Shown here: positions 1 through 5,755 of the stretch, one piece after another
Layout: each line of letters starts with the position of its first letter
Position numbering within the stretch: the stretch's first letter is position 1
Source of the DNA: a virus
Taxonomy: Duplodnaviria > Heunggongvirae > Uroviricota > Caudoviricetes
Virus record (IMG/VR): IMGVR_UViG_2713896790_000009
Length of the DNA: 5,755 nucleotides
Reading direction: 5' to 3' (one strand)
The notes under the pieces: model-generated
The model's input: only the letters and a program-made list of their open reading frames with translations
The model's database searches: none
What the model was told of the DNA's origin: nothing
Position numbers and translations under genes: made by a program

Positions 1-1399
<1,399 letters not shown>

Positions 1400-1418
1400 A
1401 TTTTATAACCCCAATACG

Positions 1419-1442
1419 GGCGTCAGAAATGACGCCTTTTTT
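1419..1442 (+). terminator. Rho-independent terminator downstream of J
   Basis: Perfect inverted repeat GGCGTCA (1419-1425) / TGACGCC (1430-1436) around loop GAAA, followed by TTTTTT (1437-1442), 20 nt after the J stop codon. Confidence 0.7.
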
Positions 1443-1466
1443 ATTGCAGAAAAGCGAGAGGTAATT

Positions 1467-1984
1467 ATGCGTAAATTATGTGCTGTTATTCTGTCCGCAG
1501 TAGTCTGGCTGGTTGCCGCTGGTACGCCAGCGAGCGCAGCAGAGCATCAGTCCACACTAAGCGCCGGGTATCTTCAGGCCCATACTGATATGCCAGGCAG
1601 TGATGACCTGAAGGGCATTAACGTGAAATACCGTTATGAATTTACGGACACGCTGGGGCTGGTGACGTCATTCAGTTATGCCAATGCCAAAGATGAGCAA
1701 AAAACGCATTACAGCGATACCCGCTGGCATGAAGATTCAGTGCGTAACCGCTGGTTCAGCATGATGGCGGGGCCATCTGTACGCGTGAATGAATGGTTCA
1801 GTGCTTATGCGATGGCAGGTGTGGCTTACAGCCGTGTTTCGACGTTCTCCGGGGATTATCTCCGCGTAACTGACAACAAGGGGAAAACGCACGATGTGCT
1901 GACCGGNNNNNNNNNNNNNNNNNNNNNNNNNNNNNNNNNNNNNNNNNNNNNNNNNNCATCGTGGGTGTCGGTTATAAGTTCTGA
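1467..1984 (+). CDS. lom: Lom outer-membrane protein (Ail/Lom family beta-barrel, lysogenic-conversion moron); contains a 50-N gap at 1907-1956
   Basis: ATG at 1467 preceded by SD GAGAGG (1456-1461). Translation MRKLCAVILSAVVWLVAAGTPASA|AEHQSTLSAGYLQAHTDMPGSDDLKGINVKYRYEFTDTLGLVTSFSYA...YSDTRWHEDSVRNRWFSMMAGPSVRVNEWFSAYAMAGVAYSRVSTFSGDYLRVTDNKGKTHDVLTG closely matches lambda Lom as I recall it, including a signal peptide with an ASA-type cleavage site. After the gap the sequence reads ..IVGVGYKF* (stop TGA 1982-1984), the conserved Lom C-terminus with terminal Phe. The track's ending SWVSVISSD (to 1988) is a gap-induced frame artefact. Confidence 0.85.
1907..1956. other. Run of 50 N (assembly gap or masked bases) inside lom
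   Basis: Exactly 50 N. About 131 nt (44 codons) are expected here from lambda Lom, so the gap is not length-true. Confidence 0.9.
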
Positions 1985-2010
1985 TTAGCCAGGTAACACA
2001 GTGTTATGAC

Positions 2011-2038
2011 AGCCCGCCGGTTCAGGCGGGCTTTTTTG
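2011..2038 (+). terminator. Rho-independent terminator downstream of lom
   Basis: Stem AGCCCGCC (2011-2018) / GGCGGGCT (2025-2032), loop GGTTCA, followed by TTTTTT (2033-2038). Confidence 0.7.
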
Positions 2039-2048
2039 TGGAGTGGAT

Positions 2049-4424
2049 ATGGCAGCAGTAAAAATCTCAGGTGTGCTGAAAGATGGTGCGGGAAAACCAA
2101 TACAGAACTGCACTATTCAACTGAAGGCAAAGCGTAACAGCACCACGGTACTGGTGAACACGGTGGCCTCTGAAAATCCGGATGAAGCCGGGCGTTACAG
2201 CATGGATGTTGAGTATGGTCAGTACAGCGTCACCCTGCTGGTTGAAGGTTTTCCGCCTTCACATGCCGGGACCATTACCGTCTATGAAGGTTCCAGACCA
2301 GGTACGCTGAATGATTTTCTCGGTGCCATGACGGAAGATGATGTCATGCCGGAGGCATTGCGTCGTTTTGAGGAAATGGTGGAAGAAGCGGCACGCAACG
2401 CTGAAGCCGCCTCTCAGAGCGCAGCGGCGGCAAAGAAATCCGAAACTGCAGCGGCATCATCGAAGAACGCGGCGAAAACCTCAGAAACGAATGCAGCTAA
2501 CAGCGCACAGGCGGCAGCGGCCTCGCAGACTGCATCGGCAAACTCCGCAACAGCAGCTAAAAAATCAGAAACCAACGCGAAAAATAGCGAGACAGCCGCA
2601 AAGACGAGCGAAACCAACGCAAAGTCCAGCCAGACGGCAGCGAAGACCAGCGAAACGAATGCCAAAGCCAGTGAAACTGCGGCAAAAAACAGCCAGGTTG
2701 CAGCAGCCCAAAGCGAGAGCGCGGCAGCCGGTTCTGCGACTTCAGCAGCTGGATCAGCAACTGCTACGGCTAACAGCCAGAAAGCTGCGAAGACGAGTGA
2801 AACTAACGCAAAGTCCAGCCAGACGGCAGCGAAGACCAGCGAAACGAATGCCAAAGCCAGTGAAACTGCGGCGAAAAGCAGTCAGGATGCAGCGGCTCAA
2901 AGCGAGAGTGCCGCAGCCAGTTCTGCAAGCGCGGCGGCTGCTTCTGCCACTGCATCAGCTAACAGTCAAAAAGCAGCAAAAACCAGTGAAACCAACGCAA
3001 AGGTGAGCGAAACAGCGGCAGCGAACTCAGCGAAAGCATCGGCAGCAAGCCAGACGGCAGCTAAAGCAAGCGAAGATGCAGCCAGAGAGTACGCAAGCCA
3101 GGCTGCGGAGCCGTATAAATATGTCTTACAGCCGCTGCCTGATGTGTGGATACCATTTAACGATTCGCTGGATATGATTACGGGCTTTTCGCCGTCATAT
3201 AAAAAAATTGTTATTGGTGACGATGAAATAACGATGCCTGGCGACAAGATTGTTAAGTTTAAACGTGCATCGAAAGCAACCTATATTAACAAATCTGGTG
3301 TGCTGACAGAGGCTGCCATTGACGAGCCACGATTTGAACGTGATGGCCTGCTTATTGAGGGGCAAAGAACAAACTACATGCTCAATTCGGAAAGCCCTGC
3401 CAGTTGGGGGCGATCTTCAAATATGGATGTGCCCGAAACAGGGACGGATAATTTTGGTTTTACCTATGGAAAGTTTGTCTGCAACGATTCTCTGATTGGG
3501 CAAACCTCAGCCATTAATATGGCATCAATTGCTGCAACAAAGTCAGTTGATGTCTCAGGCGATAATAAACACGTGACAACCTCATGTCGTTTTAAAACAG
3601 AACTGCAGGTAAGGTTGCGTATCCGGTTTGATAAATATGACGGTAGCGCAACAACTTTTCTTGGTGATGCGTATATTGATACACAAACGCTTGAAATTAA
3701 TATGACAGGCGGTGCTGCCTCAAGGATTACAGCGAGAGTCAGAAAGGACGAAGCTACCGGATGGATTTTTGCAGAGGCAACAATTCAGGCAATTGATGGG
3801 GAGCTAAAAATAGGCTCTCAGATACAGTATTCTCCTAAGCAGAGCGGGGCAACCGTATCTGGTGACTATATTTATCTGGCCACCCCACAAGTAGAAGATG
3901 GGCCTTGTGTATCATCTTTTATTATATCAGGAGCGACGGCGGCGACCCGCGCAAGCGATATAGTTACAGTTCCAATTAAGAATAATCTTTATAATCTTCC
4001 TTTTACGGTTCTTTGTGAGGTACATAAGAACTGGTATAAAACGCCAAATGCAGCGCCACGTGTTTTTGATACCGGCGGTCATCAAACCGGAGCGGCTATT
4101 ATTCTTGGCTTCGGTCGTTCAACAGATTACGACGGATTTCCTTATTGCGATATTGGAGGAGCTAACAGACGGGTAAACGAAAACGCATCGCTTGAAAAAA
4201 TGGTTATGGGGATGCGTGTAAAGTCAGAGCAGTCTACGTGCTCAGTAAGTAACGGGCATATATCCAGCGAAACAAAAACCACATGGTCCTGTATTCAGAA
4301 CACCGCAATTATCCGTATTGGAGGCCAGACTACAGCCGGGTTACGTCATTTATTTGGTCATGTCAGGAATTTCAGAATATGGCACAAGGCATTGACTGAT
4401 GCTCAGGTGGGGGAGTCAATCTAA
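2049..4424 (+). CDS. stf: Side tail fibre protein (Stf-like), mosaic: lambda-Stf-like N-terminal anchor, Ala/Ser/Thr/Lys-rich repetitive shaft, divergent C-terminal putative receptor-binding domain (possibly LamG/concanavalin-like jelly roll)
   Basis: ATG at 2049 with GGAG (2040-2043) upstream; the track's GTG at 2043 is a less likely start. Translation from 2049, MAAVKISGVLKDGAGKPIQNCTIQLKAKRNSTTVLVNTVASENPDEAGRYSMDVEYGQYSVTLLVEGFPPSHAGTITVYEGSRPGTLNDFLGAMTEDD, matches the lambda Stf N-terminus as I recall it. A single uninterrupted ORF ends at TAA 4422-4424. The C-terminal motif FGHVRNFRIWHKALTDAQV resembles the C-terminal strand signature of LamG-like domains; this is from memory and not verified. 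Confidence 0.85.
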   Translation: MAAVKISGVLKDGAGKPIQNCTIQLKAKRNSTTVLVNTVASENPDEAGRYSMDVEYGQYSVTLLVEGFPPSHAGTITVYEGSRPGTLNDFLGAMTEDDVMPEALRRFEEMVEEAARNAEAASQSAAAAKKSETAAASSKNAAKTSETNAANSAQAAAASQTASANSATAAKKSETNAKNSETAAKTSETNAKSSQTAAKTSETNAKASETAAKNSQVAAAQSESAAAGSATSAAGSATATANSQKAAKTSETNAKSSQTAAKTSETNAKASETAAKSSQDAAAQSESAAASSASAAAASATASANSQKAAKTSETNAKVSETAAANSAKASAASQTAAKASEDAAREYASQAAEPYKYVLQPLPDVWIPFNDSLDMITGFSPSYKKIVIGDDEITMPGDKIVKFKRASKATYINKSGVLTEAAIDEPRFERDGLLIEGQRTNYMLNSESPASWGRSSNMDVPETGTDNFGFTYGKFVCNDSLIGQTSAINMASIAATKSVDVSGDNKHVTTSCRFKTELQVRLRIRFDKYDGSATTFLGDAYIDTQTLEINMTGGAASRITARVRKDEATGWIFAEATIQAIDGELKIGSQIQYSPKQSGATVSGDYIYLATPQVEDGPCVSSFIISGATAATRASDIVTVPIKNNLYNLPFTVLCEVHKNWYKTPNAAPRVFDTGGHQTGAAIILGFGRSTDYDGFPYCDIGGANRRVNENASLEKMVMGMRVKSEQSTCSVSNGHISSETKTTWSCIQNTAIIRIGGQTTAGLRHLFGHVRNFRIWHKALTDAQVGESI
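2427..3080 (+). repeat. In-frame coding tandem repeats in the stf shaft region (about 33-bp AAKTSETNAKxSx-type sub-repeats; 189-bp tandem duplication)
   Basis: Copy 1 at about 2600-2788 and copy 2 at about 2789-2977 are offset by exactly 189 bp (63 codons), with a 68-bp perfectly identical core (2616-2683 = 2805-2872). A partial third copy starts near 2978. Encoded motif AAKTSETNAKSSQTAAKTSETNAKASETAAK recurs. Confidence 0.85.
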
Positions 4425-4705
4425 TGAAAGATTTAACACTCAAATTTGCCGACAGGGCCGACTTTTCGGCCTTTATGGATAGCACTGGCTATTATGATGA
4501 CGAGTCGATGCAGGATGATATTCTTATTGACGTGATAGGTAACGTGTACAAAGAAACCGGAGAACTGACTGAAGATGGCGAACCGGTATGTGTTAAGGAA
4601 GACGGATATTTTGTAAACGTGCGCATCATTAATGATTCGCAAATATCGTCATTATTCGATGAATACGTGGTTGCTGTTGAGCATCAACTTCGTGGCTGGA
4701 TGTGA
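4424..4705 (+). CDS. Hypothetical acidic 93-aa protein, translationally coupled to stf; candidate tail-fibre chaperone/assembly factor of unrecognised family
   Basis: ATG at 4424 overlaps the stf stop (TAATG), with GGGGGAG (4410-4416) upstream. ORF MKDLTLKFADRADFSAFMDSTGYYDDESMQDDILIDVIGNVYKETGELTEDGEPVCVKEDGYFVNVRIINDSQISSLFDEYVVAVEHQLRGWM is rich in Asp/Glu. It has no resemblance I can recognise to lambda Tfa; the function is inferred from position only. Confidence 0.6.
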   Translation: MKDLTLKFADRADFSAFMDSTGYYDDESMQDDILIDVIGNVYKETGELTEDGEPVCVKEDGYFVNVRIINDSQISSLFDEYVVAVEHQLRGWM

Positions 4706-4714
4706 GGAAGAAAA

Positions 4715-5755
4715 ATGGCTACATCGACAGTAATTCCTGATGACATCAAAACGCTAAAATCCGACGTTAGCAAATTAAAAAACGATCAAGGAAGCTACGC
4801 AACAAAATTATATGTAGACAGCAAAGATGAAATCGTTGGTGACTGGTCTGCTTCATGGTATCAGCAGGTATTGCCAACTAGCGGAGCTATATTTGGGAGA
4901 AAACTCCGCTCAACTCACAGGACGGCAGGTGTTGAGGATGCGTATTGCGAACTATACCTCAAAAAATGGATAGACAGTCCAGGTAACGCAATGGCGCGCC
5001 TTAACCTGAACGATAACGGGACAAACATTTGCTGGGACTTTACCAACCTTTATGGCGGTACGATGATTTTTCCCGGTGACAGCGGATACCTCAAAATGGG
5101 TAACTGCCTTATGTCATACAGCAAGCGTGGAAGTAACGCGCTTATTAAATTTGATTACACCGACACATTACAGATCAAATATGCCAATCATGGGTCAACC
5201 ATGACATTAAACACACAGGGAACCGCTTATGCTGGTGTTACTGCTCAATTGTGGGGCAACACCAGCCGTCCTGTTGTTTATGAAGTCGGTGTTGATGGTG
5301 GCGCTTATATGTTCTATGCGCAGAAAAATACCGATAACACCTATATGTTAAGCGTTAATGGTGCATGTCATGCCACCGCATTTAACCAGCATTCCGACCG
5401 GGATCTGAAAGACAACATTCAGGTGATCGATAATGCAACCGACCGCATCCGTAAAATGAACGGCTATACATACACGCTTAAAGAAAACGGTATGCCCTAT
5501 GCTGGTGTCATTGCACAGGAAGCTCTGGAAGCAATCCCAGAAGTTGTAGGTTCCGCAATGAAATATCAGGACGGTGCGAGCGGATCGGAAGGTGAAGAAG
5601 GTGAACGTTATTACACAGTAGATTATTCTGGTGTTACTGGCTTGCTTGTTCAGGTAGCCAGAGAGTCAGACGACAGAATAACAGCACTGGAAGAAGAAAA
5701 CGCAGAATTAAGACAAAGATTATCTGCAATTGAGGCGGCGCTTGCGTCTAAATAA
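4715..5755 (+). CDS. Tail fibre/tailspike-like protein with a C-terminal intramolecular-chaperone autoproteolytic domain (peptidase S74-like)
   Basis: ATG at 4715 with SD GAGGAAG (4704-4710); stop TAA 5753-5755. The C-terminal region HSDRDLKDNIQVIDNATDRIRKMNGYTYTL...YAGVIAQEALEAIPEVV...YYTVDYSGVTGLLVQVARE...ITALEEENAELRQRLSAIEAALASK carries the S-D-x-x-x-K-x-N-I signature with Ser227/Lys232 spacing and a terminal predicted coiled coil, as in the endosialidase and T5 L-shaped-fibre chaperone domains. The N-terminal 226 aa are unrecognised. Confidence 0.7.
   Translation: MATSTVIPDDIKTLKSDVSKLKNDQGSYATKLYVDSKDEIVGDWSASWYQQVLPTSGAIFGRKLRSTHRTAGVEDAYCELYLKKWIDSPGNAMARLNLNDNGTNICWDFTNLYGGTMIFPGDSGYLKMGNCLMSYSKRGSNALIKFDYTDTLQIKYANHGSTMTLNTQGTAYAGVTAQLWGNTSRPVVYEVGVDGGAYMFYAQKNTDNTYMLSVNGACHATAFNQHSDRDLKDNIQVIDNATDRIRKMNGYTYTLKENGMPYAGVIAQEALEAIPEVVGSAMKYQDGASGSEGEEGERYYTVDYSGVTGLLVQVARESDDRITALEEENAELRQRLSAIEAALASK

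Follow-up and report, generated by a model that had tools for sequence, protein, structure and literature searches.

The DNA considered here is a window of 5,755 nucleotides (nt), that is, the whole stretch that was analyzed, taken from the virus record IMGVR_UViG_2713896790_000009, and it covers the distal tail region of a lambda-like Escherichia coli prophage. The window carries the end of gene J followed by lom, the tail-fiber gene stf and two smaller genes, orf93 and orf346 (Table 1), and the order J-lom-stf is syntenic with that in lambda and in many lambdoid phages. The N-terminus of Stf belongs to the Pfam family phage_tail_N (PF08400; E=7.3e-67, residues 5-134). Our analysis concerns the adenine-plus-thymine (AT)-richer right half of the window, consisting of the distal part of stf together with orf93 and orf346, which from sequence comparisons is a portable receptor-binding module that occurs on at least five unrelated phage tail-fiber scaffolds. 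An original prediction, made from the letters of the sequence, had described this half as an exchanged host-range module starting at about nt 3110, with three tightly packed genes that probably travel together. The packing is real, since the stop codon of stf (4422-4424) overlaps the ATG of orf93 (4424-4426) as TAATG, and a spacer of only 9 nt (4706-4714, ggaagaaaa) separates orf93 from orf346. No promoter-like or terminator-like sites were found above the shuffle expectation within 3110-5755, which together with the packing fits a joint expression of the three genes.

In pairwise BLASTN comparisons, homology with three mutually unrelated virulent phage groups, represented by the Nonagvirus ESCO3, the Seuratvirus VogelGryff and the T5-like Salmonella phage FGS017, begins exactly at nt 3129, and the T1-like phage tunus becomes similar from 3087 onward. 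In the protein sequence, the switch falls directly before QPLPDVWIPFNDSL (Stf Q363), which is the site of the junction motif QPLPDVW. The predicted exchange junction is thereby borne out, but its position is not 3110; the homology boundary lies at nt 3129. The entire segment 3129-5691 (2.56 kb) is 94.3% identical in the virulent phage ESCO3, where it sits behind an unrelated fiber N-terminus and where the flanks show no match, and this high identity without flanking similarity argues for a recent transfer between temperate and virulent lineages. The same segment is common to ESCO3 and the isolated lambdoid phages Tritos, HannyBb, PhiR63_1 and 2G7b at 94-99.9% identity, and stretches nearly identical to the window were found in these four lambdoid phages and in many E. 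coli genomes.

The QPLPDVW junction was found behind lambda Stf, Nonagvirus/Seuratvirus, T1-like, Dhillonvirus, T5-like and P2-like scaffolds. In one T5-like example (P0077) a T5-type LtfA N-terminus is followed by the junction motif, and in two P2-like examples (P0048, P0109) it is a P2-type gpH N-terminus with PF12571 and PF03406 that precedes it, while in the rV5-like myoviruses the tip ends a fiber of 1479 residues with a diverged junction motif, PVMPDLW. In a TBLASTN survey, 219 phage records contained the tip (437 residues) and 179 contained orf93. The cassette thus occurs behind unrelated fiber N-termini, as a whole in ESCO3 and as the tip alone on the Seuratvirus, T1-like, Dhillonvirus, T5-like and P2-like scaffolds. 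Nor is it tied to the stf N-terminus of the window, which together with its shaft carries other tips (33-47% identical in the core) in PhiR46_1, PhiR47_1 and PhiR49_1, where this resident part is 90-98% identical. These two comparisons, in which a cassette always contiguous with one N-terminus and shaft would have spoken against exchange, came out in its favor. It had also been proposed that the module replaces the canonical lambda stf-tip/tfa arrangement, and this holds as well: no similarity of lambda orf-314 or Tfa to any part of 3129-5755 could be detected, and there is no Caudo_TAP gene in the window. At least 80% of 3129-5755 is present in 393 of the 5426 complete E. coli genomes, pieces of it in 1860 (34%), and at least 80% of the whole window in 168, among them UTI89 and NU14.

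The boundary is accompanied by a step in guanine-plus-cytosine (GC) content, from 53.4% (1-3110) to 44.1% (3111-5755). On the left side the J C-terminus has 53.3%, lom 51.9%, the stf N-terminus 52.5% and the shaft 56.5%, and on the right side the Stf tip has 44.1%, orf93 42.2% and orf346 44.6%, so that the range of 37-47% first estimated by hand for the right side was fair, whereas the 55-62% estimated for the left was somewhat high. The profile is far from uniform. A maximum-likelihood single change point falls at nt 3113, whether the entire window or only stf is considered, with a log-likelihood gain of 25.0 that was reached by none of 2000 permutations (blocks of 30, 90 or 300 nt), and it follows the repetitive shaft, as predicted, the 189-nt repeats of which (2.2 copies at 2586-3002, with sub-repeats of 42 and 21 nt) end at 3002. 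The codon-usage check agrees with this picture, in that GC at synonymous third codon positions (GC3s) drops from 0.538 upstream of the cassette to 0.378 within it. When the cassette proteins were recoded with the upstream codon usage, the expected GC was 0.498 against 0.443 observed, and of the 9.6-point step about 5.5 points come from synonymous usage and about 4 from amino-acid composition, which reflects the Ala-rich shaft.

The GC content of the module is 0.40-0.44 in all 11 loci examined. In the virulent siphoviruses the local background is 0.39-0.45 (ESCO3 0.45, tunus 0.44, VogelGryff 0.43, FGS017 0.39), whereas in the lambdoid and P2-like loci the upstream tail genes have 0.51-0.58 and the module is 10-14 points lower. 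The composition of the module therefore matches the virulent coliphages and is foreign in the lambdoid and P2-like prophages; a module at home in a phage pool of about 42-45% GC and now residing in a prophage of about 53% GC would give the step seen in the window. This composition suggests a transfer from virulent to temperate phages.

Table 1. Features of the distal tail region in the 5,755-nt window.
Feature	Position (nt)	Strand	Basis and remarks
J C-terminal domain PF12421	5' of lom		Pfam
lom	1467-1988		Ail_Lom (Pfam)
stf, 793 codons	2043-4424	+	PF08400 anchor, residues 5-134
Resident lambda-type Stf part (outside the module)	2043-3128	+	PF08400 anchor and Ala/Ser/Lys-rich repetitive shaft; GC 54.5%
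Neck (Stf Q363-N442)	3129-3368	+	Begins with QPLPDVWIPFNDSL; presumed recombination linker, candidate docking region for the second fiber
Variable tip core, presumed glycan-binding head	3369-4328	+	GTA head-spike-fiber-like domain, Stf residues 437-637, nt 3351-3953
Conserved Stf C-terminal end (..RHLFGHVRNFRIWHKALTD..) and stop codon	4329-4424	+	Second presumed recombination linker
orf93, 93 codons; small acidic stand-alone protein	4424-4705	+	PHROG 1361; directly behind the tip
orf346, 346 codons	4715-5755	+	Peptidase_S74 domain
N-terminal 16 residues of orf346 (MATSTVIPDDIKTLKS), proposed docking peptide	4715-4762	+	Conserved across 10 loci
Second-fiber body, orf346 residues 17-226, predicted second receptor-binding head after processing	4763-5392	+	phrog_4563
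Intramolecular chaperone/predicted self-cleaving domain, orf346 residues 227-346, coiled coil, stop codon	5393-5755	+	Peptidase_S74 PF13884

The tip of Stf contains a domain related to the head-spike fiber of the Rhodobacter capsulatus gene transfer agent (GTA). The NCBIfam model NF048003 GTA_spike_fiber matches residues 437-637 (50.5 bits, cut-off 36), and approximately the same residues match Rcc01080 in the Protein Data Bank (PDB entry 6tb9, E=1e-7). In the window the domain is located at the end of a tail fiber instead of on a head spike, between a neck and a C-terminal end that are both conserved and that the GTA protein is not known to share. When the tip was modeled with AlphaFold2 from an alignment of little depth (77-100% identity), the mean predicted local distance difference test (pLDDT) score was 48 and the model was confident only for residues of about 451-621, which are predicted to form a beta-sandwich; Foldseek searches with this part recovered the tail fibers of the Pseudomonas phages Pa193/E217, carbohydrate-binding modules (CBMs) and legume lectins. 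The RcGTA head-spike fiber has been shown experimentally to bind capsular polysaccharide (PMC10218006). Taken together, the fold and domain matches give weak but consistent support to the idea that the tip is a glycan-binding, lectin-like head.

The conservation of the tip is uneven. The identity of its core to that of the window ranges from 26 to 100% among the loci, while the neck (Stf 363-442) has a conservation of 0.88-0.95 and the C-terminal end reaches 0.85 in the bin of residues 763-782. In AKFV33 and BRET, which have the most diverged tips among those with a second fiber, the neck is still 72% identical where the core is 26-27%, and across the other loci with a second fiber the neck is 61-100% identical. 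In the rV5-like phage naswa (L019), whose tip is the only aligned one to combine a strongly diverged neck with the lack of a second fiber gene, 19 neck residues are missing, namely those at Stf 382-400 (FSPSYKKIVIGDDEITMPG, nt 3186-3242 of the window). These residues might represent the docking strand for the second fiber, a lead from this single case.

The second fiber, orf346, consists of a short conserved start, a variable body and a C-terminal Peptidase_S74 domain. The first 16 residues are 62-100% identical in 10 loci from five virion types, whereas the identity of residues 17-70 falls to 10-28% in half of them, and the pattern MAT.T.IP.DI..LK (M-A/V/T-T-x-T-x-I-P-x-D-I-x-x-L-K) is kept in all loci with the third gene. 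Other bodies follow the same N-terminus in PhiR49_1, tunus and a P2-like locus, and at least four architectures of the third gene can be distinguished: 346 residues with an S74 domain, 234/245 residues, 388-581 residues with an LtfB-like body, and 303 residues with a gp37-like body followed by a Caudo_TAP gene. The last of these is an uncalled second fiber in a P2-like prophage contig (L012, 2557-3999), in which the docking peptide, as identified from its sequence, is combined with a gp37/gpH-like end and, through the Caudo_TAP chaperone gene behind it, with a different fiber-folding system. IMG/VR was scanned with a DNA pattern encoding the docking peptide alone, which gave 120 sites, 117 with enough upstream sequence and 104 with 1.9 kb upstream. 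An orf93 homolog ends 5-15 nt before the ATG in all 117 and the tip domain lies upstream in all 104, although most of this sample consists of near-identical E. coli prophage copies and the 117 matches are not independent.

The S74 domain of orf346 (PF13884; E=4.8e-14, 52.8 bits against a cut-off of 22, residues 227-278) starts at residue 227, and the segment S227-D-R-D-L-K232 aligns with SDRRIK of 6f45, the structure of S16 gp37 with its chaperone, including a Ser/Lys pair spaced five residues apart. The distal half of orf346, from about residue 150 to residue 346, resembles the C-termini of long fibers in T5-like, T1-like and rV5-like phages, with 42-58% identity. S74 domains such as those of the K1F endosialidase and T5 pb1 act on their own polypeptide, in that they fold the trimer and then cleave themselves off. 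By analogy, the last 120 or so residues of orf346 should fold the trimer and then self-cleave to leave a fiber of about 226 residues, with Ser227 and Lys232 as the presumed catalytic pair. Compared with the S74 fibers of K1F, T5 and S16, the domain in the window sits on a very short fiber (226 residues) with no anchor domain of its own.

The small protein between the two fibers belongs to PHROG 1361, which is annotated as "unknown function," and the naming sources call it a hypothetical, uncharacterized or prophage protein. No Pfam, NCBIfam or PDB relative was found for orf93, nor any sequence or fold similarity to the known fiber chaperones (Tfa/Caudo_TAP, gp38, gp57A). It is predicted to form a compact, small alpha/beta domain (pLDDT 84), for which no informative structural neighbor was recovered. 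A profile search of 1.84 billion representatives yielded 97 clusters at 50% identity, nearly all of them stand-alone proteins of 85-110 residues and none of them fused to either fiber. Long multi-stretch matches in this search (P0279, P0290, P0299 and others, with E down to 3e-16) were to giant PKD- and TPR-repeat proteins and were treated as artefacts, in which a GYFVNVRI-like strand motif is probably summed over the repeats. Homologs of orf93 lie directly 3' of the tip in lambdoid, T1-like, Dhillonvirus, Queuovirinae, T5-like, rV5-like and P2-like loci, and tip and orf93 are adjacent wherever the coordinates of both are listed in the survey records.

We consider it likely that nt 3129-5755 represents a horizontally mobile distal tail-fiber module that has been placed on a resident lambda-type Stf anchor and shaft, and that it gives rise to a branched fiber with two heads. 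According to this hypothesis, the last 431 residues of Stf would make up a neck followed by a lectin-like head with a beta-sandwich fold, a homolog of the head-spike fiber with which the Rhodobacter GTA binds capsule, and this head would most likely bind a surface polysaccharide, such as O-antigen, capsule or lipopolysaccharide. The orf93 protein would most likely aid the folding or assembly of the tip, or act as an adaptor. The product of orf346 would be a short second fiber, the S74 domain of which folds the trimer and cuts itself off at about His226/Ser227, while its 16 N-terminal residues most likely plug into a conserved part of the module. Since tip and orf93 are the only parts common to the five virion types that bear the second fiber, namely a P2-like myovirus and siphoviruses of the lambda-like, T1-like, T5-like and Queuovirinae types, the attachment site should lie within the module, and the high identity of the neck where the core has diverged, compared with 31-53% for orf93, makes the neck (Stf 363-442) the best candidate for the docking site, with orf93 as the alternative. 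The outcome would be a branched side fiber with two receptor-binding heads, which we regard as the most likely architecture. The module moves between phages by recombination, presumably at three conserved linkers, namely the QPLPDVW.. motif of the neck, the end of Stf and the N-terminus of the second fiber. Sub-blocks can also be swapped singly, and the lambdoid and P2-like prophages probably gained it from the virulent coliphage pool (40-44% GC).

Several points weigh against this proposal. The attachment of orf346 to Stf is a prediction, as would be a presence of orf93 in the virion, and the structure of the neck cannot be read from the tip model, which is poor outside Stf 451-621. Tip and orf93 are found without a second fiber in ev207, 4A7 and rV5-like phages such as naswa, and apparently in the Dhillonvirus rolling, which indicates that branching is optional. 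The low conservation of orf93, which has no informative fold relative, weakens it as a docking partner, and the IMG/VR sample is dominated by close copies. Finally, the direction of transfer rests solely on composition, and about 4 of the GC points that separate the two halves are due to the amino acids encoded.

A bolder version of the proposal is that the neck, orf93 and the 16-residue peptide constitute a previously undescribed, self-contained "branching kit," which would let any long fiber (lambda-like, T1-like, T5-like, Queuovirinae or P2-like) carry an exchangeable second fiber, with orf93 as a new small class of assembly or adaptor proteins and Stf 382-400 as the docking strand. We put this forward tentatively, as a reading that may well prove too strong.

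The role of orf93 is central to these ideas and we can think of more than one explanation for it. It is probably an assembly factor of the tip or an adaptor, but it could instead be a structural adaptor that itself carries the second fiber, so that docking would occur on orf93 rather than on the neck, or it could have a role unrelated to fibers. Its constant position between the two fiber genes, a few nucleotides ahead of the docking-peptide fiber, and its compact and confidently predicted fold would fit a structural adaptor, as would the correlation (rho 0.54) between its identity and that of the neighboring Stf C-terminus, the sole correlation with parts of the tip. That covariation is inseparable from physical linkage, however, and we rejected it as a sign of function. 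Moreover, orf93 is retained where the second fiber is absent, it is far less conserved than the docking peptide (31-53% in contexts where the peptide is 62-88% identical), and no fusion to either fiber was found among the 97 clusters. We therefore find it doubtful that orf93 is the carrier of the second fiber, or stands outside the fiber system, and favor docking on the neck.

Another possibility is that orf346 is an independent fiber, or a mere chaperone for Stf, rather than a branch on Stf. Database records from VogelGryff and ESCO3 annotate it as "putative lateral tail fiber chaperone" and "endosialidase chaperone," the branching itself is a prediction, and the P2-like second fiber has a separate chaperone gene of its own and behaves as a self-contained fiber. 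Against this possibility stands the action of S74 domains on their own polypeptide, as does the 226-residue N-terminal part, which resembles the receptor-binding ends of long fibers. Furthermore, the same N-terminal peptide is present both in a P2-like myovirus and in siphoviruses, whose baseplates have nothing in common besides tip and orf93, and in the IMG/VR scan the docking peptide was never found without these two. We thus consider both variants unlikely and retain the interpretation of orf346 as a second fiber that is carried on Stf.

The original prediction that the three genes travel together was only partly supported. The whole block is shared by several phages, but the genes do not always move as one, as at least three sub-blocks reassort and the second fiber is sometimes absent. 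PhiR46_1 and PhiR49_1 match the window across the junction as far as nt 3376 and then diverge; the similarity comes back at 4344 and 4309, respectively, and in PhiR49_1 it ends again at 4758. Within the module, PhiR47_1 shares only 4694-5755 with the window and ev207 only the part up to 4071, while the similarity to VogelGryff and FGS017 stops at 4447. The P2-like locus has a tip core that is 95% identical to that of the window, an orf93 that is 47% identical and a different second fiber, whereas PhiR46_1 has a tip core of 33% identity with an orf93 of 98% and the same second fiber, and PhiR49_1 an orf93 of 97% with another fiber body behind an almost identical N-terminus. As judged from these sequence comparisons, the tip core, the tip end with orf93, and the second-fiber body reassort independently. 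Recurrent breakpoints in the E. coli genomes were identified near nt 3373, 3933, 4317-4393 and 4727-4758, and they coincide with the conserved stretches (neck, end of Stf and codons 1-16 of orf346), which presumably serve as linkers for homologous recombination. The stronger reading, in which the three genes are inseparable and are in every case inherited and exchanged as a single unit, has in its favor the tight packing, the segment 3129-5691 shared at high identity by the four lambdoid phages and ESCO3, and the 393 E. coli genomes with most of the module; the independent assortment in the P2-like locus, PhiR46_1 and PhiR49_1, the partial matches in 1860 genomes and the three phages ev207, 4A7 and naswa without a second fiber make it very improbable.

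The mosaic is further interrupted by mobile elements in a few cases: in phage 4A7 (L011, 7267-9683) three mobile-element genes sit between the tip and orf93, and in E. coli JCH767 (H335) an IS3 family transposase is annotated inside the module match. A Pin-type recombinase 3' of the module in Tritos and in the copies at Rac sites, along with the two places of the tip in 4A7, led us to consider an invertible fiber segment. We rejected this idea, as the case of 4A7 is a mobile-element insertion and PinR belongs to the adjoining Rac-type region.

That the GC step is a mere by-product of protein composition, with an Ala-rich shaft followed by a beta-rich head, can be dismissed as most improbable, because even though GC at codon position 2 is 0.69 in the shaft and recoding accounts for some 4 points of the step, GC at synonymous sites is unequal across the junction, J and lom have 52-53% GC without being Ala-rich, the module stays at 40-44% on every scaffold and the exchange is seen directly from sequence homology.

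That unrelated phages exchange parts of their tail fibers has been recognized from the early 1990s on, and mosaic tail-fiber genes shared among unrelated double-stranded DNA phages were reportedly described by Haggard-Ljungquist and colleagues in 1992 and by Sandmeier in 1994. The module is a clear and well-delimited case of this gene swapping and not a new kind of system. What is added here is the exact junction at nt 3129, the internal sub-modules, the breadth of scaffolds, the strict linkage of tip and orf93 and the probable docking peptide; no description of the arrangement of tip, orf93 and docking-peptide fiber turned up in the literature searched. In the BASEL papers (PMC8594841, PMC11990801), the lateral fibers of Drexlerviridae, Queuovirinae and T5-like phages were found to conserve just the N-terminal anchor within each group while the rest varies.

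Among the known systems, the window resembles the Stf/Tfa system of Ur-lambda in its location after J and lom, in the PF08400 anchor and in the Ala-rich shaft, and lambda orf-401 is 58% identical to the Stf of the window over residues 5-331. However, the distal 431 residues of Stf have no BLASTP similarity to lambda orf-314, and in place of Tfa/Caudo_TAP the window has a GTA-spike-like head, orf93 and a second fiber. Engineered chimeras of lambda Stf with foreign tips are functional (PMC11338833).

A functional parallel is provided by the T5-like phages DT57C and DT571/2, which have branched, L-shaped tail fibers composed of LtfA and LtfB (PMC4728585, PMC10713586). There as here, two fiber genes are adjacent, the first is anchored, and the second is anchorless and thought to ride on the first, with two receptor specificities as the result; an adjacent, anchorless second fiber gene with a conserved N-terminal segment, as expected of a branched-fiber system, is present in the window. 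LtfB-like bodies are even found behind the tip and orf93 of the module in some T5-like and Seuratvirus loci. But the N-terminus of DT571/2 LtfB (MSRNLMPKSG..) is unrelated to MAT.T.IP.DI..LK, its LtfA has neither the QPLPDVW junction nor a GTA-spike-like tip, and ltfA and ltfB are about 40 nt apart with no orf93-like gene annotated between them. We therefore rejected the idea that the docking system is the same as that of DT57C LtfB, since the N-termini are unrelated and only a generic motif is shared (residues 27-60, in the FGS017 fiber). In podophages of Klebsiella, a branching domain and a conserved docking peptide have been described (PMC13352976), with a short conserved N-terminus on a variable second receptor-binding protein that enables plug-and-play exchange. 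The likeness drawn here is one of arrangement, and those systems consist of podovirus tailspikes with no small third protein.

From a practical point of view, the QPLPDVW motif at nt 3129 defines a precise natural graft point, and the sub-modules define natural internal boundaries, for a receptor-binding unit that is found on at least six tail-fiber scaffolds, which is of direct use for host-range engineering of lambda-derived particles and therapeutic phages, and the candidate docking peptide may offer a route to adding a second receptor-binding protein. The family of orf93 (PHROG 1361) emerges as a widespread, unannotated family of small proteins tightly linked to one type of fiber tip. The module furthermore documents recent gene flow between temperate E. 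coli prophages and virulent coliphages, with pieces in about a third of the complete E. coli genomes.

Some minor observations concern the sequence records and the gene calls. Records labeled as "Campylobacter phage" (MG0656xx) and "Listeria phage" (OR84xxxx) carry the coliphage module at 70-80% identity or more, and these entries are probably mislabeled or contaminated. The stf reading frame is listed from a GTG at 2043, whereas its homologs begin with MAAVKISG, corresponding to an ATG at 2049 with GGAG 7 nt upstream; this ATG is probably the true start, in which case the Stf residue numbers would shift by -2. The shaft (2400-3100) shows an extreme AT skew of +0.5 to +0.7 on the coding strand, with many more A than T, and its Ala/Ser/Lys/Thr/Glu repeats are accompanied by long spurious open reading frames, antisense and out of frame. 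Runs of exactly 50 N occur in J (813-862) and in lom (1907-1956), where they create artificial stretches of X and break the calls of open reading frames.

The left half of the window shows signs of a mosaic structure of its own. The region of about 863-1990, consisting of the C-terminal receptor domain of J and lom, is 95-98% identical to PhiR46_1 and PhiR47_1, whereas in Tritos and ev207, two phages with the same stf gene, lom is missing altogether and the match ends near nt 1020. Lambda matches only 865-949, and GC dips to 0.45-0.46 at 1100-1500. By these comparisons the region looks like a second exchangeable block. Strong terminator-like GC-rich hairpins followed by T runs are located after J (1418-1437) and after lom (2011-2032), so that lom is bracketed by both.

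Just beyond the end of the window, a conserved hydrophobic, membrane-like protein of 95-97 residues (MDITPFLHALCAVAAQLLIGLF..) is encoded 3' of the module in every lambdoid locus, with or without a second fiber (L001, 7689-7982; L002, 7424-7711; L003, 7103-7390; L007, 6606-6899; L009, 7342-7635). It might be a further companion of the module that is specific to the lambdoid phages.

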